DNA from: Conexivisphaerales archaeon
GTDB lineage: Archaea; Thermoproteota; Nitrososphaeria; Conexivisphaerales; DTJL01
Direction: 5' to 3'
DNA: 12,748 bases
Assembly (NCBI GenBank): GCA_049509455.1
Contig: JBEKZX010000043.1
Location: 1-12,748, forward strand
The position numbers were made by a program, and so were the translations under genes. Numbering within the stretch: position 1 is the first letter of the stretch; each line of letters opens with the position of its first letter. A model generated the notes under the pieces. The model saw only the letters and a program-made list of their open reading frames with translations, was not told the origin of the DNA and did no database searches. This document shows, piece after piece, positions 293 through 12,738 of this stretch.

Positions 293-535
293 CTAGAATC
301 TGTCCTCGTAAGCAGGTCCAAGCCTAGGTCCTCCTCCTTTGGCGTACTTCTTCCAGGGGCGCTTTTCGAGAAGTGCGGAGTCAATAGCTGGAGGTGCTGC
401 ATGGTTGCTGGAAGTGGCGCTCTGCTCAGTTGCGGCGTGGCTCTCCCCGTTGAACCTCTGCCTCCCGAGGACGTAGACGATGTTGCTGAACTGCCTCTCG
501 GTGTCGTTGGCCATTGCTTTCCAGGAACTACCCAT
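293..535 (-). CDS. small hypothetical ORF (start uncertain: 553, 535 or 514)
   Basis: ORF divergent from DUF1801 across an AT-rich stretch (541-570). No recognisable motif. Confidence 0.2.
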   Translation of the reverse strand: MGSSWKAMANDTERQFSNIVYVLGRQRFNGESHAATEQSATSSNHAAPPAIDSALLEKRPWKKYAKGGGPRLGPAYEDRF

Positions 536-598: not shown

Positions 599-1018
599 AT
601 GAACCCATCCGAACTTATTGACAAGCAAATCGCAGACCTTACGGACTGGCGCGGCAAAATGCTTGCCAATCTTCGCAATATCATTCATGATGCTGACCCC
701 GAGATAATCGAGGAATGGAAATGGATGGGCACTCCATGTTGGTATCACGATGGACTAATTTCGGTGGCTAACGCTCACAAGGATAAGGTAAAGCTGACTT
801 TCTTTCAAGGCGCAAGCCTTCCAGATCCGGACAAGCTCTTCAACGCCGGCCTTGAAGGCAATAAGTGGCGAGCAATCGATTTCCACGAGGGTGACAGAAT
901 CAATGAGCGCGCTCTGAAAAATATCATCCGTGCTGCCGTGGCTTACAATCGTGCTGGACTGAAGGGGAAAACCCCGGCAGATGCTCGCGGGATTCGGGCT
1001 AAAGTACACAAAAAATAG
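599..1018 (+). CDS. DUF1801 (YdhG-like) domain protein
   Basis: MNPSELIDKQIADLTDWRGKMLANLRNIIHDADPEIIEEWKWMGTPCWYHDG...KVKLTFFQGASLPDPDKLFNAGLEGNKWRAIDF matches the DUF1801 pattern (EEWKW-G-P-W, LTFFQGA-L-DP). ATG 599 chosen over the track's 281 start because an AT-rich TATA-like tract lies about 30 bp upstream. Confidence 0.9.
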   Translation: MNPSELIDKQIADLTDWRGKMLANLRNIIHDADPEIIEEWKWMGTPCWYHDGLISVANAHKDKVKLTFFQGASLPDPDKLFNAGLEGNKWRAIDFHEGDRINERALKNIIRAAVAYNRAGLKGKTPADARGIRAKVHKK

Positions 1019-1051: not shown

Positions 1052-1198
1052 TTACTTTTCCGGCGGCTGGAGTAGCGAGAAATTGTTTCCATCTGGGTCG
1101 CTGACATCCAATGCGGTAGCAGTCAAGCGGCCCGGTGAATAGAAGTCACCCCATTTTCGCAGGTCCAAGCCCACGTCGAAGATTGGCGGTCGCTGCTG
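1052..1198 (-). pseudogene. VOC/glyoxalase family C-terminal remnant
   Basis: Minus strand reads ...LDVSDPDGNNFSLLQPPEK*, the DPDGN motif of VOC proteins. Neighbouring frames give ENGVT and LFTGPLD, suggesting frameshift decay. No start codon; the 5' part is replaced at repeat copy 1. Confidence 0.55.
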
Positions 1199-1270
1199 TT
1201 CTTTCCAGCAGCGATAGATATCCAAAACTATCGTGACCAGCTTGGTCTGGGCTCTCGAGCATCCTAGTGA
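1199..1270 (+). repeat. Dispersed direct repeat, copy C1
   Basis: TTCTTTCCAGCAGCGATAGATATCCAAAACTATCGTGACCAGCTTGGTCT...CCTAGTGA. 24/28 ungapped to the core; similarity to C4 extends to CCTAGTGA. Confidence 0.9.
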
Positions 1271-1336
1271 AGAGGGAAAGCTTCAATGTCGTGGGAATTT
1301 CGTCAAGCAGTCCCCTGCGTTCTTGGATACGCGACA

Positions 1337-1360
1337 CCCGCCCTGGCGGGCAACCTTTTT
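1337..1360 (+). terminator. GC hairpin followed by T-run
   Basis: CCCGCCCTGGCGGG then CAACCTTTTT. The transcript it would terminate is unknown. Confidence 0.25.
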
Positions 1361-1388
1361 CAGATGGTTCCCCCGAACTTTCCAAGTA

Positions 1389-2108
1389 TTGGTCTGCTTT
1401 GTGGTTTGCAGGAACTGTGGACCCCTCCCCTTCCCGGTGAACCCGTCGCTATCGCTTCGCCGCCAGTCCGCAGAGCTGGCTGGCATCGTCGCGACTTCGG
1501 CGTGCAGCAAGTGCGGCTTGCTGAGCCTTGAGCTGAGGGAGTTCACCGATAAGGACGGCGCCATCATCGAATCCGACCTGAGGAGAGAGGAGCCTGAGTA
1601 CGGCAGAACGCAGGACCTCCTGAGGGCCTTGGCCGATGCCGACGATGAAGCCGAAGTCTTGGAGGAGATCGATGAGGCCAGCCGTGGCTTGCGGGAAAGG
1701 ATGGGGATAGCGTATGACTTTGCCCCACGCGGTGAGACTCCCGGCATCGAGAAGGAGCTGATAGATGAAGAGAAGCTGGAGACAGCGGAACCGGAGCCTG
1801 GTGTGTACCTGCCGGTCATCCGGGTGGAGGGCTGGGCGATTAAGACCCAGCCAGACCTCAGGACCGATATCTACATGATGAAGGATCAGGGAGACATTCT
1901 AGTCGCGTTCAAAGTAAGCCTCGACGTTCGAATCTACTGGTTCTTCACATCCATGACCAGGGACCTGGCATGGCTGAAGAAGGTAGTCGTGGCGAGGAAG
2001 GTGGGACTGGCTTTCGTGAACGGAATCCATGTCATGCGTCTGGACGATTCCTCTGCGCGCGAGGTAAACCTGGTCCTCCTTGGCTGGCAGATGGGGGCCA
2101 GAGGGTAG
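1389..2108 (+). CDS. hypothetical protein with N-terminal Zn-ribbon (CRNC...CSKC)
   Basis: Long open frame with gene-like codon usage from about 1390, two CxxC pairs, an acidic helical middle and a beta-rich C-terminus. Start uncertain (TTG 1389 or GTG 1401); the track's 1233 start lies inside repeat C1. Confidence 0.7.
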   Translation: MVCFVVCRNCGPLPFPVNPSLSLRRQSAELAGIVATSACSKCGLLSLELREFTDKDGAIIESDLRREEPEYGRTQDLLRALADADDEAEVLEEIDEASRGLRERMGIAYDFAPRGETPGIEKELIDEEKLETAEPEPGVYLPVIRVEGWAIKTQPDLRTDIYMMKDQGDILVAFKVSLDVRIYWFFTSMTRDLAWLKKVVVARKVGLAFVNGIHVMRLDDSSAREVNLVLLGWQMGARG

Positions 2109-2145
2109 GAAGTCATAATGGCGAACGACCAGAAGCAGAGTTGTC

Positions 2146-2212
2146 CGCGCCCTGACCGAGGCACCGATTTCTGATGAGGCCCAAGACCCCGTCTGGACGA
2201 ACATGCCGGGCG
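2146..2212 (+). repeat. Second repeat family, copy A
   Basis: Ungapped 67-bp similarity to 5264-5330 with exact blocks CGCGCCCTGACCG and CGATTTCTGA; 44/67 identical overall. Confidence 0.7.
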
Positions 2213-2411
2213 TCAGCTATTACACTTGGACAAGATGGCCGTAGAGCGGAATGGAGGACACCGTGCCCCTTTCTCCAACAACGGTCGAGCAGCCTAACTC
2301 ATCAGGAGTATAGCACTCGCTGTTTGAACGACAGAAATGGCGCCCAAGTCGAGATTCGTATTCAGCTTCTCGTCCAGGATGAGGGGGCGTAATGTAGGCA
2401 TCAATCGCCTA

Positions 2412-2450
2412 AATGACATTCATTTCTTTTCCAGCAGCAATAGATATCCA
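2412..2450 (+). repeat. Dispersed direct repeat, copy C2
   Basis: AATGACATTCA-TTTCTTTTCCAGCAGCAATAGATATCCA (core 2423-2450 equals the consensus). Similarity stops abruptly after ATATCCA. Confidence 0.9.
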
Positions 2451-2568
2451 GGAGCAGTCGTCCGTCCGATAAAGTATAATTGGCGCCCTGCTCTCAAGAT
2501 TCCATACACATGAGACCTGGAGAAGGTTGGGCTAGTGGAACGCTCACGATAATCTCTTTCGTTCGCAA

Positions 2569-2575
2569 GGAGGTG
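2569..2575 (+). promoter_or_regulatory. Shine-Dalgarno site of DoxX gene
   Basis: GGAGGTG ends 9 nt before TTG 2585. Confidence 0.7.
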
Positions 2576-2584
2576 GAGACCTAG

Positions 2585-3010
2585 TTGTCAGGTCTCTTAC
2601 AGTTTCTGAACCCGTACGGGCCTGAACTCCTACTCATCCTAAGGCTCGGCGTCGGGGCCGCTATGGCGCTCCACGGTTACCCGAAGGCAAAGGGAGGAAG
2701 GGTTCAGGCTGAACAATGGATGAAGGGCATGGGGATACCGCCGCTCGCCGCCGACCTGGTGACGGTGCTTGAGTTTCTCGGCGGGGTCTTCCTGATACTC
2801 GGCCTCCTGACGCCCCTTGTAGGCCTCTTCTTCGTCATCCAGTTTGGCTCAATCATCTGGATGAAGAAGTCGAAGATGCACGCCAAATTCATCAGCACGG
2901 AGCAGGGGAAGCCCACGTATGAGATCGACGCCGTCTACCTGCTGCTGGCCCTCGTCTTCCTTGTGCTTGGGGGAGGACCCCTCTCACTCGATAGGCTGCT
3001 GGGACTGTAG
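2585..3010 (+). CDS. DoxX family membrane protein
   Basis: LLILRLGVG...HGYPK, LEFLGG..LILGLLT, YEID..YL...L.GGGPLSLDRLL motifs; about 4 hydrophobic segments; SD upstream. Confidence 0.92.
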   Translation: MSGLLQFLNPYGPELLLILRLGVGAAMALHGYPKAKGGRVQAEQWMKGMGIPPLAADLVTVLEFLGGVFLILGLLTPLVGLFFVIQFGSIIWMKKSKMHAKFISTEQGKPTYEIDAVYLLLALVFLVLGGGPLSLDRLLGL

Positions 3011-3030
3011 CGGAAAGGATGTCGCGTCCG

Positions 3031-3082
3031 GCCAATGATATTGATTTCTTTTCCAGCAGCAGTGTATATCCAAAATCATGAC
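3031..3082 (+). repeat. Dispersed direct repeat, copy C3
   Basis: GCCAATGATATTGATTTCTTTTCCAGCAGCAGTGTATATCCAAAATCATGAC. Core 25/28; starts 21 bp after the DoxX stop. Confidence 0.9.
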
Positions 3083-3273
3083 GTCTGACAGGAAAGACCT
3101 GGCTGTTATCAAAGCCGACGATGACGCGGGCGCTGTGGTAATGGTAGTGGTCGTGGTGGACTCTTTCGGTTTATCTCGGGTATTCGTCATTCGTGCTTCA
3201 ATGGCCGCCTTTGCCTCACCTTTCGCCTCCCCCACCGGGGAGCATATTAGTCGGGTTGTCAGATGAAGTTCCG

Positions 3274-3915
3274 TTGAAGGAAGTAGTGCTGGCGGTCGGG
3301 ATGCCGAAGGGCCCCGCATGCCCCGTCCTGAGTCGCAGCTCCGGCCATTGCAAGCTCATCGACTTCAAAGTGAGCTCCCGAAACGACAGCTACCGGCACC
3401 TGGTGGAGCTAGATATGCCGGGGGGAGACGTGCGTTCCATCCTGGCTCGCATCAGGGAGGCCCGCTCCGTTCGTTCGATCGATGTCACCACGGCGGACAG
3501 GCACAAGCTCGTCGCCGAAGTCGTGAGCTCGGGATGCGACATGTGCAAGGCCTTCTCCTCCTTCGACTGCTTCGTGATGGGGGCCTACTCCAGGTCTCCA
3601 AAGGAGATCAGGTGGAGACTCCTGTTGGAGCAGAGCCAGTCCCTGCAGCCCCTCGTCGAACGCCTGGAGGGGATCGGGCTGAAGGTCGGCATACTCAGCA
3701 TCGCCAAGCTGGGGAGGATCGACAGGCTCACCACCCGGCAGGAGGAGGTCCTGCGGGCGTCAATCGACCTAGGCTACTTTGACTATCCCAGGAGGCTAAG
3801 CCTCAAGAGGCTGGCCGAAGCCATCGGGGTGGCTCCGGGTTCCCTGAGCGAGACCCTCAGGAGGGCCGAGAAAAACGCGGTCAGTGAGTGCCTGAAGAGC
3901 CGGAAGGGCACCTAA
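3274..3915 (+). CDS. HTH_10 (bacterio-opsin activator-type) transcriptional regulator with Cys-rich N-terminal domain
   Basis: C-terminal LTTRQEEVLRASIDLGYFDYPRRLSLKRLAEAIGVAPGSLSETLRRAEK is the archaeal HTH_10 signature. TTG 3274 gives 213 aa with C16, C26, C88xxC91 and C99. Confidence 0.9.
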   Translation: MKEVVLAVGMPKGPACPVLSRSSGHCKLIDFKVSSRNDSYRHLVELDMPGGDVRSILARIREARSVRSIDVTTADRHKLVAEVVSSGCDMCKAFSSFDCFVMGAYSRSPKEIRWRLLLEQSQSLQPLVERLEGIGLKVGILSIAKLGRIDRLTTRQEEVLRASIDLGYFDYPRRLSLKRLAEAIGVAPGSLSETLRRAEKNAVSECLKSRKGT

Positions 3916-3931
3916 CCCGTAACCCACAACA

Positions 3932-3949
3932 CCCTAACCTAGGTTAGGG
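3932..3949. promoter_or_regulatory. perfect 18-bp palindrome, putative operator of nirK
   Basis: CCCTAACCTAGGTTAGGG, ending 49 bp before the nirK start. Operator role is inferred. Confidence 0.6.
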
Positions 3950-3998
3950 CATACCTCTAATTCCCTCTTCGCACGATGATTGTGTAGGGTAGAGGGTT

Positions 3999-4955
3999 TT
4001 GTCTGGTAAGTCTAGGAAGAGGGACCTGACGATGCTGTCAGTGGGCGCACTGATAGGTGTGCTCGTTCTTGGAGCCTTGGTGGTAGTAGTGCCGCTGCTC
4101 AAGTTCCCCGCCAAGGCGACCGGCGCACCGTCCAACGTGTCGTTCACCCTGATCGCCGAGCAGCAGCAGGTCCTGATAGCGTCCGGCGTCACTTTCGACG
4201 CCTGGACGTTCAACGGCACAGTCCCCGCTCCCACCATCAGGATCACACAGGGCGAGAACATGACTTTCACCCTGATCAACGACGACACCATGGGCCACTC
4301 GATCGACTTCCACGCCGCCCAGGTGCCCTGGAACGTGGACTACAGGACCATCGGCCCCGGCGAGAACCTCACGTTCTCGTTCATAGCCAACTATCCGGGC
4401 GTCTTCATGTATCACTGCGGCACGCCTCCGGTCCTCGAGCACTTGGGCGAGGGGATGTACGGGGTAATCATCGTCGACCCGGTGACCCCGAGGCCCCCTG
4501 CGCAGGAGTTCGTCATCGCCGTCAGCGAGTTCTACCTGAACTCACAGCCGAATTCAGATGGCAGCTACTCAGGGAACTACCCCGAGATGCTGGCGGTCAC
4601 GCCTACCTACGTCGTGTTCAACGGCTACGCCAACAAGTACGTGGCCAACCCCCTGCAGGTCGTCGCCGGCCAGCTGGTGAGGCTCTACGTCATCAACGAG
4701 GGTCCCTCACTCTTCACGGCCTTCCATGTGATCGGAAACATATTCAGTACGGTCTACGTCGACGGCAATCCAGCTAACAAGCTTGTCGGAGTCCAGACCT
4801 ATACGATCCCGCCGGGAGGAGGGGCGGTGTTCGAGCTGACATTCCCCGGGCCTGGTCAATGGCTGTTCGTCACCCACTCCTTCGCGTACACCGGCCTAGG
4901 AGCCGAGGGAATCTTCAACGTCTCGGCCGCCGGCACCACCCTACCCAGCGGCTAG
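3999..4955 (+). CDS. nirK: copper-containing nitrite reductase (NirK-type two-domain multicopper protein), N-terminal membrane anchor/signal
   Basis: T1/T2 Cu ligands and catalytic residues all present: HSIDFH, YHC, EHLGEGM, FHVIG, FVTHSF. Basic N-region followed by a hydrophobic helix. Confidence 0.85.
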   Translation: MSGKSRKRDLTMLSVGALIGVLVLGALVVVVPLLKFPAKATGAPSNVSFTLIAEQQQVLIASGVTFDAWTFNGTVPAPTIRITQGENMTFTLINDDTMGHSIDFHAAQVPWNVDYRTIGPGENLTFSFIANYPGVFMYHCGTPPVLEHLGEGMYGVIIVDPVTPRPPAQEFVIAVSEFYLNSQPNSDGSYSGNYPEMLAVTPTYVVFNGYANKYVANPLQVVAGQLVRLYVINEGPSLFTAFHVIGNIFSTVYVDGNPANKLVGVQTYTIPPGGGAVFELTFPGPGQWLFVTHSFAYTGLGAEGIFNVSAAGTTLPSG

Positions 4956-5273
4956 ACCACGACCACCACGTCGACGACCACCACGGCCAAGACGACATAG
5001 GTCTCCATCCTCCCCGGTGGTGTCTACTCGAACCACACTCGGTACTACTCCCCCGACCCCGTCACGGTCGTGGTGGGGGTGAACAACACCATCACCTGGA
5101 CGAACAACGACAACATGGTTCACACGGTTACCTCGCGGACGGGTCTCTTCGATTCGGGGCTCATCGAGGCCGGCATGACCTGGACCTACACCTTCGACAC
5201 GCCGGGCATCTACAACTACTACTGCACGCTCCACCCATGGACGAACGGCACGGTGACGGTCCTCGCGCCCTGA
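4956..5273 (+). pseudogene. Thr-rich linker and plastocyanin-like cupredoxin domain, in frame with nirK but separated by TAG 4953 and TAG 4998
   Basis: Same frame: *TTTTTSTTTTAKTT*VSILPGG...YYSPDPVTVVVGVNNTITWTNNDNMVHTVTS...FDSG...YTFDTPGIYNYYCTLHPWTNGTVTV. The position of the usual axial Met is Thr (ACG). Confidence 0.8.
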
Positions 5274-5330
5274 CCGCTGTCACGATTTCTGACACGACCT
5301 ACGACGTCACCGCGATGAACCCGGTGGGCG
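5264..5330 (+). repeat. Second repeat family, copy B
   Basis: See copy A. Overlaps the cupredoxin stop codon and ends 30 bp before C4. Confidence 0.7.
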
Positions 5331-5360
5331 AAGGCGTTGTCCACGTTGCCCAGCCGCAGC

Positions 5361-5449
5361 GCCAACGATCTTGATTTCTTTTCCAACAGCAATTGAAATC
5401 CAACACTATCATGACCGGCTTGGTCTAAGCCAGCGGACACCCCTAGTGA
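5361..5449 (+). repeat. Dispersed direct repeat, copy C4 (longest)
   Basis: GCCAACGATCTTGATTTCTTTTCCAACAGCAATTGAAATCCAACACTATCATGACCGGCTTGGTCT...CCTAGTGA. Core 25/28; GATTTC-N16-GAAATC dyad at 5373-5400. Confidence 0.9.
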
Positions 5450-5608
5450 CGACATCTATTCCCGACGAAGTGCGACTCCGTGATTGCGGAGCTCTAGACC
5501 GACTTGTGCCCGTTTCTAAAAGGGACCGACGCTTGACCGGGTCAAAGTGGACCCCCCAGGGATATTGCGATGCAGATAGGTTCAGTCGCCAACGCTCCGC
5601 ACGGACCG

Positions 5609-6565
5609 TCAACGTCCTCCGGGGGACGGCTTGGTCTGCTTCCGCAGGCCCACCGACAGCGCAGCCGCGACGGCGATCACCGCCAGGACGATCGTTATCG
5701 AATAAAGCGTGGGTATCACGAAGCCGAGCTCCCCCGCTATCATCTTGAAGCCAAAGAAGACCAGGACCACCGCTAGGCCCTTGCTGAGGTACTTCAGCTT
5801 GTACATGAACATGGCCAGCACGGTGTAGAGGCTCCTCAGGCCGAGGATGGCAGAGATGTTCGAGGTGTAGGCGATGAAGAAGTTCAAGGTTATGGCGATG
5901 ACCGCAGGGATTGAGTCGAGGGCGAACACGATGTCCGTCGTCTCGATCGCCAGCAGGGCGAGCACCAGCGGCGTCAGGTACCTCTTCCCTTCATCTTGGG
6001 CTATGAACTTCGAACCGTAGTAGCGGTCGCTGACGGGAGCGAACCTCCTGGCGAACCTGACCAACGGGTTGCGACCCGGGTCCACCTCCCCCATGCCGCT
6101 TCGAGCGAGCCTGTAGCCCGAGTAGATGAGGACCGCGCCGAAGACCCCGATCATCCAGTCGAACCTCGCGATGAGCTCCAGACCTGAGGCGATGAAGACG
6201 CCTCGAAGGACCATCGCGGTGATTATCCCTATGTAGAGCGTCTTGTTCTGGTAGGCCAACGGGACGGAAAAGTAGGCGAAGATCACCGCGAAGACGAAGA
6301 GGTTGTCGAAGCTGAGGGAATACTCGACGATATAGGCTGTGAAATAGAGCAGAGTAGCGCTCCCGCCGAGATAGAGCCCGACCAGGGCGCCCGTCCCGAC
6401 CCCCACGGCGACCCAGACGAGAACCCAGGAGATGGCCCTCCTGAAGGTGGGGCTGTCACCCTTCCGGTGGAAGAACAGGTCTATGCCTATGAACGTGAAT
6501 ATGACCACGTTGTAGAGAACCCAAACCCAGAGGGGTATCTCTGGGAAGACCACGGGGGAGGGCAA
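5609..6565 (-). CDS. TerC/Alx family membrane protein
   Basis: YFTAYIVEYSLSFDNLFVF, LYIGIITAMVLRG, ETTDIVFALDSIPAVIAIT, SNISAILGLRSLY are TerC motifs. TTG 6565 (or GTG 6553) chosen by TATA position. Confidence 0.93.
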   Translation of the reverse strand: MPSPVVFPEIPLWVWVLYNVVIFTFIGIDLFFHRKGDSPTFRRAISWVLVWVAVGVGTGALVGLYLGGSATLLYFTAYIVEYSLSFDNLFVFAVIFAYFSVPLAYQNKTLYIGIITAMVLRGVFIASGLELIARFDWMIGVFGAVLIYSGYRLARSGMGEVDPGRNPLVRFARRFAPVSDRYYGSKFIAQDEGKRYLTPLVLALLAIETTDIVFALDSIPAVIAITLNFFIAYTSNISAILGLRSLYTVLAMFMYKLKYLSKGLAVVLVFFGFKMIAGELGFVIPTLYSITIVLAVIAVAAALSVGLRKQTKPSPGGR

Positions 6566-6592
6566 GACGACGACTCTGGTCGCTCGCGTCGA

Positions 6593-6600
6593 CTTAAATA
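6593..6600 (-). promoter_or_regulatory. TATA box of terC
   Basis: TATTTAAG on the minus strand, 27 bp before TTG 6565. Confidence 0.55.
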
Positions 6601-6785
6601 TGCTCTGGCCAGGAAGGCGCCGAAATCGGTTTGGGTGACGTGCAGGGCCATTCGAACGCACCACTCCCAGAAGAGAGGCCTGAACAGCGCAGAGGCATTG
6701 GAGCCTTGCTCACGATTCCAGAACTGTATCGTATCGAGGCAGCTTGGGGCAGCGTGTAAAGTGTAGCTTGAAGGCCTTCCAAGAG

Positions 6786-6792
6786 TTAAATA
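6786..6792 (+). promoter_or_regulatory. TATA box of TackOD1 gene
   Basis: TTAAATA 26 bp before TTG 6819. Confidence 0.5.
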
Positions 6793-6818
6793 GCCGTGGA
6801 GAGGTCCTAGTTAAGGAA

Positions 6819-7832
6819 TTGAAGGGGCTGAACGCGGAGTCCGAGCTTTCGCTGTCCTTGATAATTCGGGACTTCGCATATGAGAAACTCTCCAAGGTCG
6901 TCTCCATCCAGGAGAAGTTCTCCAACCACTACTTCTTCGATCCACCCCTCGACAAGGAGCTCCCCGTCCCCTACCACAACATCCTCAACGCGCTCGCCGC
7001 CCTCGAGAACTGGGGCTACATGGCCAGCTTAAAGTCGGTCACGCGCTACTGCGTCGAATGCTTCACCATGGGGCTCAACGTGGCTGGAAGGTGCCCGTTC
7101 TGCGGCTCCACCCGCATCAAGAAGGGGAGGATGTTCGCCCACAAGTGCGGCTACAGGGGGTTCGAGGAGATCTTCCGGATGGGAGACAAGTGGGTCTGCC
7201 CCAAGTGCCAGAAGCAGCTCTACATGGAGGGGGGCGACTACAAGGACGAGGGAAGTCAGTTCAAGTGCATGACCTGCGGGAACATCTTCGAGAACTTCGC
7301 CACGTTCTACCAGTGCCCCAACTGCCACACTTACTATGAGGAGGCGCAGGCTCCCTCCATCGAGTTCGTGACGTACAACCCCACCAACACCATGACCATG
7401 AGGAAGGGGACGATCAAGAGCGCCTACGACGTGACCGAGAGGGTGGCCCAGTACCTCCAGAAGTCGGGCTTCGAGCAAAAGATGTATTCGCTGACCGAGA
7501 TGAAGGAGGAGTTCTACTTTTGGGACGTAGTCGCCCAGAAGGGAAAGGAGCCGGGCACGGCGGTAGGCGTCGGCACCCTCCCGCTCTTCGACATCGTCGA
7601 CGACGATTTCGAGAAGGAGCTCATCGACAAGAAGGAGAGGTCGGACTTCGCATCGGCCCTCTACATCACTCCGGCCCAGGTGGCCAAGGGGCCCGTCGCC
7701 AAGATGAAGTCTAAGAACATCTTCATCGTGGACCCGAGGTTCGAGACGCTGATGAACGAGGATATCCTGAAAGAATATGTGGACCCGCTTCTGAACGTGG
7801 GCAAGGGGCGCGGACGCGCTCCTCGTGTCTAG
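6819..7832 (+). CDS. TackOD1-like (thaumarchaeal output domain) multi-Zn-ribbon protein
   Basis: CVEC, CPFCGS, HKCG, CPKC..L...GGDY.D.G..FKCMTCG, CPNC series. The C-terminal alpha/beta region with WDVVAQK resembles a restriction-endonuclease-like fold (weak). Confidence 0.75.
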   Translation: MKGLNAESELSLSLIIRDFAYEKLSKVVSIQEKFSNHYFFDPPLDKELPVPYHNILNALAALENWGYMASLKSVTRYCVECFTMGLNVAGRCPFCGSTRIKKGRMFAHKCGYRGFEEIFRMGDKWVCPKCQKQLYMEGGDYKDEGSQFKCMTCGNIFENFATFYQCPNCHTYYEEAQAPSIEFVTYNPTNTMTMRKGTIKSAYDVTERVAQYLQKSGFEQKMYSLTEMKEEFYFWDVVAQKGKEPGTAVGVGTLPLFDIVDDDFEKELIDKKERSDFASALYITPAQVAKGPVAKMKSKNIFIVDPRFETLMNEDILKEYVDPLLNVGKGRGRAPRV

Positions 7833-9832
7833 AACTCTGAAGACTTCTTGCTCAGCTGAGAGTAGGCCTTCCGCCCCTGGGGCGTTATCGTGACCAGGCT
7901 CTTGAAGCCGCCCTTCTCGCCCTTCTGTTCTACCGTAGCGTGGCCGATCTTCGTCAATATCCCCAGGATCTTCTCGAACTCGCTGGCGTCGAGGCCGGTG
8001 CTGCTAAGCAGGACGCTCTGCTCGACGGGGTCGTTGGCCTCCGACAGGCTCTTGAGGATCTTGAAGCTACCGGACTCCAGGAACTTCAGCGGCGGGGCCA
8101 CCGGCACGGTCGGCGCCGCGAGAGACTTCGCTTCGCCTGTCCTGGGCACCCCAGCGTCGACGACGGTGGTGCCACCTCCCTCGACGGTGGGGACCTCCTT
8201 AACCGCCTCCACTTCGATGCCGAGCCTGCGAAAGAGGCTCTTCGCGTCCACATAGTACTCCGTGATGTACTTGAAGACCTCCTTCACGTTCCGGATGTTG
8301 TTCCCCTGCATCCACTTGAGGAGCGCCTTCCTCTTCTGGATCTCCTCCAGCATGTCGCCGAAGCTCCTCCCGGTCCTGTACGCGAACCTGTGGAGCATGA
8401 CCGACCTCTTCGTGTAGTTGTAGTAGAGGTCCTCCGTGGGCGACCATTCGAACACCGGGACGTACTTGTTGAAGTCCTCGACCTCCCAGACGGTGGTGAT
8501 GCGCCTGCCGAAGGGGACGCCCGCCACGCTCTTGGGGAGCATCACCCTCTCTAGCATGACGGCGACGTTCATGAGGGGGATGTAGCTCTCGGCGACGTTC
8601 ATGGGCGGGCTGGTGAGCCTCTTCACCGCGGAATCGAACGACTCCCCGTGGATCGTGCAGAGGCCTCCGTGGCCCGTGGCCACGGCCTGGAACAGCACGA
8701 ACGCCTCCTCTCCCCTGACCTCTCCTACGACCAGGAAGTCGGGCCTGTACCTGAGGGAGGTCTTGACGAGGTCGAAGAGGGACACCTCGCCTATCTTGGA
8801 GCCGGTCATGCCGTAGCTCTCCCTGCTGGTGAACTGCACCCAGTTCTCCGTGGGGATGTTGATTTCGGCAGTCTCCTCCACCGTGACGACCTTGTAGCCC
8901 GGCTTGATGAGGCCGGCTATAGCGTTGAGGAGGGTGGTCTTGCCCGCGGCCGTGCCTCCGATGACCAGCATGGAGGCCCTGTTCTCCATCATGAGCCAGA
9001 AGTAGGCGGCTATCTCGTCGTTGACGGTGCCCAGGTTCATCAGGTCGACGATCGAATACGGCTCCTCCCTGAACTTCCTGATGGTGAACGTCGAACCCTT
9101 GGGCGACACCTCCTCCCTGAAGCTGGCCGCCAGCCTGTGCTTCCCGAATATCATGGCGTCGACGATGGGGAAGGCGGACGAGACGTGCTTCCCGGACTTG
9201 TGGGCGAGCTTGACGATGAAGTCGTCGAGGAGCTCCTTGTCGACGAACTTGACGTTGGTGGGGATGGACTCGTACCTCCTGTGCCAGACGTACATGGGGG
9301 CCATGACGCCGTCGCAGGAGATGTCCTCTATCCTCCAGTCGGCCATGATGGCGTGTATGGGGCCGTAGCCGAGGAGGTCCCTCTCGATATAGTAATAGAT
9401 CTTGTCCCTCCTCTCGGGGTTCCTGAGCATGGGGAACCTGCCGCTGTACTTGTCCAGGATCCTCTTCGCCTCCTTGAGGACGGCCTTCCTTACGTCCTCC
9501 TCCTTGCCGATGGCCATGGGGTTGATCTCGACCGACACGAAGGAGATGACCTTGTCTAGGAGCTTCTGCTCGCTTGGTGTCAGCTGGACCTCCTGGACGA
9601 AATACTCCAGAGAGCCACCCTGCTCCGGCATCTTGGCGATGGCGATGCCCGCGAACGGCTCCCTCACCCAGTACTTCTCGATCACCTGTGCGGACTCGGG
9701 GAGAGGTTCGGAGATGTATCCGTACGGGGCCGACTCCTTGAGCTTCTCCATGGGCGTCATGTTGGCCTTCGCTTCGGCTGCAGCCGCGGCCACCTTCTTC
9801 TTGTTCGCGAACATGCCCTTCAGACTGGCCAT
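7829..9832 (-). CDS. archaeal type II/IV secretion system ATPase (TadA/FlaI/PilB-like) with C-terminal winged-helix domain
   Basis: IEDISCDG, Walker A GGTAAGKTT, TVEETAE Asp box, LRYRPDFLVVGEVRG, TGHGGLCTIHG His box. Tail KILKSLSE...EFEKILGILTKIG...VTITPQGRKAY is wHTH-like. Confidence 0.93.
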   Translation of the reverse strand: MASLKGMFANKKKVAAAAAEAKANMTPMEKLKESAPYGYISEPLPESAQVIEKYWVREPFAGIAIAKMPEQGGSLEYFVQEVQLTPSEQKLLDKVISFVSVEINPMAIGKEEDVRKAVLKEAKRILDKYSGRFPMLRNPERRDKIYYYIERDLLGYGPIHAIMADWRIEDISCDGVMAPMYVWHRRYESIPTNVKFVDKELLDDFIVKLAHKSGKHVSSAFPIVDAMIFGKHRLAASFREEVSPKGSTFTIRKFREEPYSIVDLMNLGTVNDEIAAYFWLMMENRASMLVIGGTAAGKTTLLNAIAGLIKPGYKVVTVEETAEINIPTENWVQFTSRESYGMTGSKIGEVSLFDLVKTSLRYRPDFLVVGEVRGEEAFVLFQAVATGHGGLCTIHGESFDSAVKRLTSPPMNVAESYIPLMNVAVMLERVMLPKSVAGVPFGRRITTVWEVEDFNKYVPVFEWSPTEDLYYNYTKRSVMLHRFAYRTGRSFGDMLEEIQKRKALLKWMQGNNIRNVKEVFKYITEYYVDAKSLFRRLGIEVEAVKEVPTVEGGGTTVVDAGVPRTGEAKSLAAPTVPVAPPLKFLESGSFKILKSLSEANDPVEQSVLLSSTGLDASEFEKILGILTKIGHATVEQKGEKGGFKSLVTITPQGRKAYSQLSKKSSEF

Positions 9833-9910
9833 CGCTATCAAGATAACGATAATCAGTGGTCGATAGATAAGGATGCTGTTAAGATAGGACTTGAGCGGAT
9901 GGTCTAATCT

Positions 9911-11938: not shown

Positions 11939-12081
11939 AGGAGAGGGGTCAGGGTGTTACCAAGTTATACCGCATCCCACTCCGGCGTTTCCAGCGGATT
12001 TGTTGGGGAGGGGGGTGGCCTCGGTTCCCTGACAGGTCGGCGGGACCAATTCTTCTGCCGGACCTGCGCCTGTTTCCCCTC
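11939..12081 (+). repeat. 143-bp structured direct repeat, copy R1
   Basis: 111/124 identical to R2 outside a 19-nt variable segment (11978-11996). Hairpin CAGGTC-GGCGGGA/TTCTGCC-G-GACCTG at 12033-12066. Confidence 0.92.
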
Positions 12082-12386: not shown

Positions 12387-12724
12387 CGGGAAAGGACGGT
12401 AGCGAGACGGCCAAACCCTCAGGGGGACCGGAAACTGACAAGGGTGGGCAGGCAGGAGGACCCGCGGCCTCCTCGGAAGAAGGGAAGCAAGCGACTCTGC
12501 CACCGCTCGACGACAATGACAAGCAAGCAATAGCCTTTCTCCGTGTGAAAGGCGTCTCACAGAACGCAATTGTCGGCATCTATGGTCCCGGGAGGAGGAG
12601 AGGGGTCGGGGTGTTACGAAGTAATACCGCATCCGGCGGAGTGGCCCTGGACGATTTGTTGGGGAGGGGGGGTGGCCCCGGTTCCTTGACAGGTCGGGCG
12701 GTCGAATTCTTCTGCCGGGCCTAA
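12251..12724 (+). CDS. hypothetical ORF: low-complexity N-terminus, HTH-like segment, 3' end inside repeat R2
   Basis: LDDNDKQAIAFLRVKGVSQNAIVGIYG resembles a helix-turn-helix. The last about 42 codons are R2 sequence. Confidence 0.35.
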   Translation: MSEPLDKPAGNAEATAGPPAGNAGHPAHPKKTSAGSPKPALETLAPGKDGSETAKPSGGPETDKGGQAGGPAASSEEGKQATLPPLDDNDKQAIAFLRVKGVSQNAIVGIYGPGRRRGVGVLRSNTASGGVALDDLLGRGGGPGSLTGRAVEFFCRA

Positions 12725-12738
12725 GCCTGTTTTCCCTC
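12596..12738 (+). repeat. 143-bp structured direct repeat, copy R2
   Basis: 657 bp downstream of R1. Hairpin retained as AGGTC-G-GGCGG/CTGCC-G-GGCCT at 12691-12722. May extend past the window end. Confidence 0.92.

Follow-up and report, generated by a model that had tools for sequence, protein, structure and literature searches.

Repeat modules in a 12.7-kb contig of a Nitrososphaerota archaeon as probable junction sites of a gene-cassette array

The window analysed here is an entire 12.7-kb contig (C79) of the metagenome-assembled genome (MAG) G000, a member of Nitrososphaerota whose assembly comprises 2.05 Mb in 140 contigs and is 95.5% complete. A preliminary description of the window had reported a 28-bp core repeated four times between unrelated genes and had read the copies as recombination sites or scars. 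Our results indicate that these four repeats (C1-C4) are probably the junction sites of a cassette array. They belong to a family of sites that recurs throughout the genome, adjacent sites are co-oriented and lie at cassette-sized distances, breakpoints of homology between relatives fall at sites, and insertion-deletion (indel) polymorphisms amount to one cassette plus one site, with crossovers inside the site. The window itself consists of five joints (311, 1156-1250, 2409, 3031 and 5361) and four cassettes. Of the array of recombination junctions proposed earlier, the joints and the breakpoints in relatives stood, while the co-oriented genes, the compensated hairpin and the single hotspot did not.

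The comparison set comprised the source genome G000, its congeners G001, G002, G003 and G004, and 36 genomes from other genera. Copies of the repeat modules were counted by fuzzy matching, a nucleotide hidden Markov model (HMM) with nhmmer, BLAST and exact 13-mers, and the reversed sequence was used as a control. The chance level for the 28-mer was obtained from 200 shuffles of the sequence, and the genes of the window were assigned by Pfam.

The 28-mer core is present at 2423 without mismatches and at 3045 and 5375 with three mismatches each, all on the + strand, with none expected from the shuffles. The copy at 1197 (+) has four mismatches to the 28-mer and was recovered by nhmmer (E = 2e-10), and also as repeat family D4, in which 1202-1248 aligns with 5380-5426 at 85% identity over 47 nt. 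The positions and the strand given in the preliminary description are thereby confirmed, and so are its intervals of 1226, 622 and 2330 bp; the pairwise extension of the repeats that it noted is found again in families D1 and D4, which reach 43-47 nt.

The alignment of the copies showed that the junctions are mosaics of modules in the order (K)-P-A-B-(H/K/G). Module A is 20-27 bp long, with the core TTCGCAGGTCCAAGCC(C/T)ACG, and is near-invariant across 20 nt with sharp edges. Module B, of about 43 bp, is the core of the preliminary description. Module P is AT-rich (...CAATTAACCTATTGTTTTCAATAACACAAAGATGA), optional and placed to the left of A; K and H carry hairpins and G is a gene fragment, all three being likewise optional. 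K and P are invariably found 8-55 nt to the left of A, with B on the other side at a distance of 13-35 nt. Beyond A or B comes a long stretch of unique DNA, and no linkage of P or K to unique flanks was found. Within the window, C1 is built of A, B and H, C2 of B, C3 of B and G, and C4 of B and H. The joints and cassettes are as follows.

310-327 (+): degenerate core of module A, AGCAGGTCCAAGCCTAGG, with the exact 13-mer GCAGGTCCAAGCC at 312-324
491-1104 (mixed strands): cassette 1, the 5' stub of a regulator gene (-), at 599-1018 (+) a DUF1801 gene, and at 1052-1104 (-) the terminal 17 codons of a VOC/glyoxalase gene
1141-1250 (+): junction C1, module A at 1156-1177 (core TTCGCAGGTCCAAGCCCACG), B at 1197-1227 and H at 1228-1250
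1251-2363 (+): cassette 2, a hypothetical protein gene (open reading frame, ORF, 1233-2108) with its own flanks
2409-2454 (+): junction C2, module B only, core at 2423-2450
2455-3030 (+): cassette 3, a DoxX gene (2585-3010) preceded by about 130 nt of conserved sequence and followed by 20 nt
3031-3111 (+): junction C3, module B (core at 3045-3072), then G, the 5' fragment of a GNAT-type gene (3078-3111)
3112-5360 (+): cassette 4, an HTH_10 regulator gene (3193-3915), a multicopper oxidase/nirK-like gene (3999-4955) and a cupredoxin domain (5001-5272)
5361-5477 (+): junction C4, module B (core at 5375-5402) and a full H (5406-5477), the right end of the array

The composite build of C1, with A ahead of B and H, the additional A-like core at 312-324 (+) and the GNAT fragment in C3 had been overlooked in the preliminary description. 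The right flank of the core at 310-327 is homologous to the right flank of an A site in G004 (contig C9, position 192), and this core is probably the first junction site, counted from the left, of the window's array.

Both A and B are numerous in the source genome. In G000, fuzzy matching returned B 33-41 times and the HMM about 45 times, against none in the reversed-sequence control, and its copies are put at 40-45. A, the commonest repeat of the genome, gave 48 exact 13-mers and at least 62 BLAST matches, and its copies number at least 62-73. The approximately 110 A/B sites of G000 are spread over many islands, so that the window is not the single hotspot that it had been taken for. Close matches to B number 28 in G000 and 32 in G004 and are rare in G001 and G002; B was found neither in G003 nor in the 36 genomes of other genera. 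A occurs 17 times in G001, 46 times in G002 and 49 times in G004, was not found in G003 in a search that was limited to the genus, and is present on 77 metagenome contigs. The further copies that the preliminary description had proposed to look for thus exist both in the genome and in its relatives. Site density in G000 is 8.4 per 100 kb on contigs shorter than 40 kb vs 0.77 on contigs of at least 40 kb, which indicates that the sites mark poorly assembling variable islands. The B core had no match in IMG/VR, and a viral origin of the repeats was rejected on this account; a literature search for the module motifs returned unrelated primer matches only. A second exact repeat of high copy number in G000, ACGGTGACAGGCCCCACCACTACG, is 24 nt long and has about 17 copies; it shows no relation to the junction modules and may be a CRISPR repeat.

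The sites stand in rows that share one direction. Neighbouring junctions point the same way in 266 pairs and opposite ways in eight (118 vs one on the metagenome contigs alone), with a median spacing of 889 bp and an interquartile range of 592-1922 bp. Among the 220 intervals of 250-2500 bp, to which this count was restricted, 184 have a single ORF that covers at least half of the interval. This main ORF lies on the strand of the site in 106 intervals and on the opposite strand in 78 (58:42), and the genes flanking sites are divided about 50/50 between the strands. One gene per interval is therefore a general property of these arrays, while the + strand of all the modules described earlier for the window is a local accident. 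The families that recur beside A, namely DUF7347/HTH_20, ABC ATPase, NHL propeller, adenylate cyclase-TPR and M29 peptidase, are ordinary accessory genes.

The relation of the sites to breakpoints was analysed on a non-redundant set of homology blocks of at least 88% identity with 298 internal ends, where near A was defined as within 15 nt and near B as within 25 nt. No fewer than 81 of these ends (27%) lie near A, vs 1.2% by chance. A stricter set (at least 90% identity, 108 internal ends) has 72 ends no more than 15 nt away from A or B. When A sites of different genomes were paired, about 20 pairs had one flank in common, the left and the right about equally, and a single pair had both. Moreover, a 2.1-kb cassette with A at both ends is common to G004 and G000; its homology reaches as far as the outer edge of either A copy, beyond which the flanks are unrelated. 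Three indel polymorphisms were found in which one site is opposed to two sites and 284, 296 or 1070 bp, that is, one cassette plus one copy of A. According to the informative positions, the crossover lies inside the invariant A core in two of the three; in the third, whose two cores differ, it falls within the 5-nt AAGCC just to the left of A. For sites inside conserved blocks, both partners had the site in 168 instances and one partner was without it in two. A gap consisting of modules only was not seen in any collinear pair of blocks, and there were no filled-vs-empty sites between genomes. The comparison of strains suggested in the preliminary description has thus revealed gain, loss and re-assortment of cassettes with breakpoints at sites.

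The cassettes of the window show the same boundaries. Cassette 1 is 90% identical to positions 655-1271 of G004 contig C9, and its part 817-1104 is 93% identical to a metagenome locus (L123); both homologies end at 1104. The DUF1801 gene in it was identified with E = 3e-22. The VOC/glyoxalase gene breaks off at 1104, and the VOC reading frame kept in G004 is longer and ends ...FSDPDGNAFGLLQPP, in agreement with the broken VOC gene reported beside C1. Cassette 2 is 91% identical to positions 183762-184873 of G004 contig C4, where the neighbours differ and the repeats are absent, and this homology begins exactly at 1251, the end of junction C1. The DoxX gene of cassette 3 (E = 1.6e-13) encodes a protein with counterparts of 86-89% identity in other Nitrososphaerales, which stand in unrelated contexts, one of them between ribosomal-protein genes. 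In the nucleotide alignment with the DoxX loci of three other Nitrososphaerales lineages, homology extends only from about 2455 to about 3030, and these limits coincide within a few nt with the right edge of C2 and the left edge of C3. The A 13-mer is absent from all three foreign DoxX loci; B was looked for in one of them only (L166) and was not found there. Distant homologues of cassette 4 (65-69% nucleotide identity) are present on contig C20 of G001 in a different arrangement. In G004 the matches of the window are dispersed, with 498-1104 on contig C9, 1251-2363 on C4 and 6773-9874 on C5. The ends of homology blocks in the window at 1104, 1251, 2363, about 2455 and about 3030 are all 0-52 nt from a module. 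Of the genes named in the preliminary description, those for DUF1801, DoxX, HTH_10 and the nirK-like oxidase were recognised by Pfam, while ORF 1233-2108, described there as a Zn-ribbon hypothetical, had no Pfam match.

The structure of the sites was compared with that of known recombination sites. A regular-expression search of both strands between 900 and 5700 found no attC R'' (RYYYAAC)/R' (GTTRRRY) pair 35-130 nt apart. DNA folding gave z = -0.3 for C2, +1.6 for C3 and -0.15 for C4, none of them significant, so that the imperfect single-strand hairpin of attC is not seen at these three copies. The fold of C1 (1141-1256) reached z = -3.3 owing to a private 10-bp stem that no other copy has. 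Module A is without dyad symmetry (best dyad 4/7) and hence without dif-type arms. B shows a weak 10-8-10 symmetry, GATTTCTTTT-N8-AATAGATATC, matching at 8/10 positions, which by our estimate is not above chance given about 900 combinations of arm, spacer and offset tried. ARAGORN found no tRNA gene in the window, and the repeat is not the 3' part of a tRNA. Terminal inverted repeats are missing from both A and B, and no duplicated target was observed. The statement that the site is neither attC nor the end of a tRNA gene is supported by these results, and no convincing dif-like symmetry was seen. The arrangement nevertheless resembles integron arrays and integrase-less attC clusters (CALINs) in that at least two co-oriented sites lie less than 4 kb apart (622-2330 bp in the window).

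A hairpin GACC(A/G)GCTTGGTC shared by C1 and C4 had been described as compensated, its A/G change keeping the pairing. It exists in both copies, but it is not stronger than in shuffled sequences (z = -1.75 and -1.22), the two remaining copies of H in the genome (GACCGCTTGGCC on contig C59 and GACCGGCTTGGCC on contig C62) do not preserve it, and the A/G pairing rests on two sequences. In B of C1 the left arm has been swapped for a private inverted copy, CGCTGCTG. At 1186-1216, GGTCGCTGCTGTTC stands in place of the usual left arm TGATGATATTGATTTC; it repeats the site centre CAGCAGCGA in inverted form, and the pair forms a perfect hairpin of 9-10 bp that is unique to C1. This inverted arm could be the scar of a snap-back or of an aborted strand exchange.

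Other readings of the repeat sequence were also tried. A coding function, as a VOC helix on the - strand or a 36-aa peptide on the + strand, was rejected, as no frame is open or kept across the copies and the spacing from ATG to A varies out of frame; the VOC-like reading through C1 is due to chance, since VOC homology to G004 ends at 1104. An RNA family was rejected after Rfam gave no match at E up to 1. The order and distances of the boxes, judged by eye, did not fit a C/D-box small RNA or a fixed-distance promoter.

The search for an enzyme covered PF00589, PF01797, PF07282 and PF00239 in G000. As stated in the preliminary description, the window carries no recombinase. The only tyrosine recombinase of the genome is a Phage_integrase (PF00589) gene of 455 aa on contig C100 (1570-2934, L053), and this single match adjoins no site, in a MAG of the completeness given above; no IntI was recognised. 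Its family is patchy and multi-copy: relatives hold full copies as well as fragments (residues 1-167 or 298-411 only), G004 has five matches, and homologues are also present in genera without a match to the B core. The fragments look reminiscent of integrases split on integration. Being patchy and fragmented in relatives, this recombinase is unlike a housekeeping Xer of the host. A complete IS200/IS605-type element (Y1 tnpA + tnpB) is located on contig C118 (4006-5537), and two more genes, tnpB only, are on contigs C65 and C89; all three contigs lack junction modules. No resolvase was found in G000. The all-against-all comparison of ORFs for a multi-copy transposase returned only paralogues (cNMP-binding, TFB, TBP, thermosome and beta-propeller proteins). 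A tyrosine or serine recombinase linked to the sites, which the preliminary description had recommended looking for, was thus found neither by Pfam nor by tblastn.

Taken as junction sites, the modules would divide the variable islands of the genus into rows of units of about 0.9 kb, usually with one gene on either strand, separated by co-oriented modules. Recombination between two co-oriented sites would lead to the loss or gain of one cassette together with one copy of the site, and the same process would join cassettes to new neighbours. We infer, moreover, that sites may take up circular or foreign cassettes and that A and B may be recognised in trans by a sequence-specific enzyme.

Several results weigh against this reading. 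Only seven of the 298 block ends lie near B, which is the module of the window repeats, and the direct evidence for breakpoints therefore comes mostly from module A and not from the B core of the preliminary description. As many as 158 of the 298 ends are far from any A or B, and A/B sites are thus not the sole breakpoints. The three mapped crossovers have no one fixed position, and homology-driven exchange fits such variation better than a fixed cleavage site; the site-specific addition of cassettes one at a time, as proposed earlier, can only be inferred. The deletions could be the outcome of ordinary homologous recombination, or of slippage, between these short direct repeats, and insertion, as opposed to deletion, was never directly observed. 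Seven independent assemblies with an identical DoxX protein retain the order DUF1801, hypothetical gene, DoxX, HTH_10 and oxidase, within the reach of short contigs, so no shuffling is visible at the four repeats of the window. None of the recombinase genes found in G000 is linked to sites: the Phage_integrase, tnpA and tnpB genes are all on site-free contigs, and tblastn detected no homologue of these recombinases on any A-bearing metagenome contig. In G004, runs of the same orientation extend over 75-320 kb and flip abruptly, with at least eight switches within contigs, and replication-linked insertion could be the source of these long runs. Together, the variable crossovers, the distant block ends and the lack of a linked enzyme keep homology exchange between passively spread repeats as a rival to cassette junctions served by a specific enzyme.

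A more far-reaching proposal, which we advance tentatively and regard as possible at most, is that A and B are the targets of a hitherto unrecognised sequence-specific recombination system of Nitrososphaerota, which arose independently of integrons and has its own enzyme. Such a system might, with the same reserve, capture, excise and re-order single genes in either orientation at asymmetric, unstructured sites of 20-40 bp. It is rather unlikely that the modules are instead non-autonomous mobile repeats with an orientation fixed by the replication fork, of the kind of repetitive extragenic palindromic (REP) units and bacterial interspersed mosaic elements (BIME), BOX or miniature inverted-repeat transposable elements (MITE), which later became passive substrates of recombination or slippage. 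In IS200/IS605-type single-strand transposons orientation is set by the replication fork, and the long runs of G004 with their abrupt flips and a weak minimum of cumulative GC skew near one flip (contig C2, 104 kb) are in line with such an origin. The modular mosaic build with the optional hairpin modules K and H, the intergenic position of the copies regardless of gene strand, the varying crossovers and the single Y1 (HUH) transposase gene of G000 also agree with it. However, at least eight orientation switches within contigs exceed what one origin and one terminus would produce, and the sites are limited to islands and not spread across replichores. Furthermore, A and B lack a hairpin, terminal inverted repeats and target duplication, and the lone Y1_Tnp gene is on a module-free contig, which does not correspond to an IS200/IS605-REP-RAYT (REP-associated tyrosine transposase) relationship. 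A MITE is likewise not indicated, as neither terminal inverted repeats nor a module-only gap were found, and the count of 168 vs 2 interior sites shows no filled-vs-empty polymorphism of modules alone.

We consider it improbable that small elements, integrating in tandem through a tyrosine integrase of the mobile genetic element (MGE) type, left the sites behind as att cores between arm-like P/K and B, the cassettes being decayed remnants of these elements. The co-orientation and the sharing of one flank are as in a series of attL/attR, the K-P-A-B composite resembles a full attP regenerated between tandem elements, and the patchy integrase family, present in several copies and with fragments of its N- and C-terminal parts, does exist in the genus. 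Nevertheless, more than 100 sites per genome at a median spacing of 0.9 kb would imply elements much smaller, and present in much greater numbers, than the integrated elements known so far, the integrases lie away from the arrays, with none on the 77 metagenome contigs, and their homologues occur in genera without a B-core match (A was searched within the genus only). A also lacks the inverted binding arms usual for such cores, and no tRNA gene is involved. Least probable of all is that the repeats are host regulatory or transcription signals of the island genes, such as a promoter, leader, terminator or transcription factor site, with no role in recombination. B does contain a T-run (TTTCTTTT) 20-300 nt behind + strand genes of the window, P resembles an AT-rich promoter with ATG, and one B lies 30 nt upstream of a cyclase gene, a pair conserved in G004. 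There is, however, no fixed distance or strand relation to genes, neither a reading frame nor an Rfam match supports such a function, and it would leave the 266:8 co-orientation and the breakpoints at sites unexplained.

Integrons are the textbook device for the collection of single genes. Archaeal CALINs (Ghaly et al. 2022, PMC9668308) are among the closest known systems, and the only arrays described from Archaea are canonical attC arrays (PMC9668308). Like chromosomal integrons and CALINs, the arrays studied here are rows of mostly single-gene cassettes of about 0.6-2 kb with co-oriented sites that are homogeneous within a genome. The cassettes vary between close relatives, an indel comprises one cassette and one site, the cargo consists of accessory stress, redox and regulatory genes, and the arrays often have no integrase nearby. 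Unlike in integrons, the sites have no R''/R' boxes and no imperfect-palindrome fold, no IntI was recognised in G000, the ORFs of the cassettes lie on either strand, and there are many separate islands instead of one platform. Moreover, two independent site types (A and B) are present along with optional modules, and the position of the crossover varies.

The pdif modules of Acinetobacter plasmids and the integrative mobile elements exploiting Xer (IMEX) have sites of about 28 bp with 11-6-11 inverted arms in alternating orientation. In their general features they resemble the present arrays in that short sites flank discrete modules of varied context that carry no recombinase gene. In contrast to pdif, A has no dyad, B has only the weak 10-8-10 symmetry and all sites are co-directed, and no Xer-type gene was found in G000 apart from the one MGE-type integrase. 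REP units of enterobacteria are palindromic and often alternate in orientation, while boxA-B-C make up the BOX elements of pneumococci. The present modules share with REP/BIME and BOX the general features of being intergenic, high-copy and lineage-specific, as well as the fixed order of short modules with optional members and some hairpins. Unlike in REP/BIME, the core modules are unstructured and strictly co-oriented, and to our knowledge neither REP/BIME nor BOX delimits re-assorting single-gene cassettes.

The results suggest that in a soil/peat lineage of Nitrososphaerota most of the flexible genome is organised cassette by cassette, with sites that show none of the features by which attC is defined. 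Should there be a dedicated enzyme, this would be a second, independent invention of gene-cassette capture and possibly a new tool for recombination; if there is none, short dispersed direct repeats alone can yield an integron-like population structure. In either case the sites explain why these MAGs assemble into many small contigs, and they mark the places of exchange of accessory genes such as DoxX, the nirK-like oxidase and regulators.

Within cassette 4, the nirK-like two-domain multicopper oxidase and the cupredoxin domain are in the same frame (3999-5272, +), separated by a Thr-rich linker and two in-frame TAG stops (...LPSG*TTTTTSTTTTAKTT*VSILPGG...). This arrangement represents either a recently broken fusion protein or read-through of the stops. 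Junction C4 is followed by a convergent TerC gene (5609-6664, -; E = 3.7e-44). Farther to the right, a TackOD1 (thaumarchaeal output domain) zinc-ribbon protein is encoded at 6744-7832 and a 670-aa secretion ATPase of the T2SSE type at 7829-9841. These two genes belong to a conserved, core-like part of the contig that is 84-88% identical in three congeners, and synteny between this part and the array side breaks at about 6770.

Four copies of the motif GTTTCCAGCGG, at 11987 (+), 12171 (-), 12306 (-) and 12368 (-), surround a small ORF with AGNAG-type repeats. The region bears what we take to be a superficial resemblance to archaeal origin-recognition boxes, and the adjoining gene encodes a pyridoxal phosphate (PLP)-dependent enzyme, not Orc1. 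A replication origin at the orientation flip on G004 contig C2 was considered and rejected, as there was no GTTTCCAGCGG cluster beside the weak GC-skew minimum. Finally, two direct repeats of about 143 bp, 84-92% identical and 657 bp apart, are located at 11939-12081 and 12596-12738 and carry G-runs.

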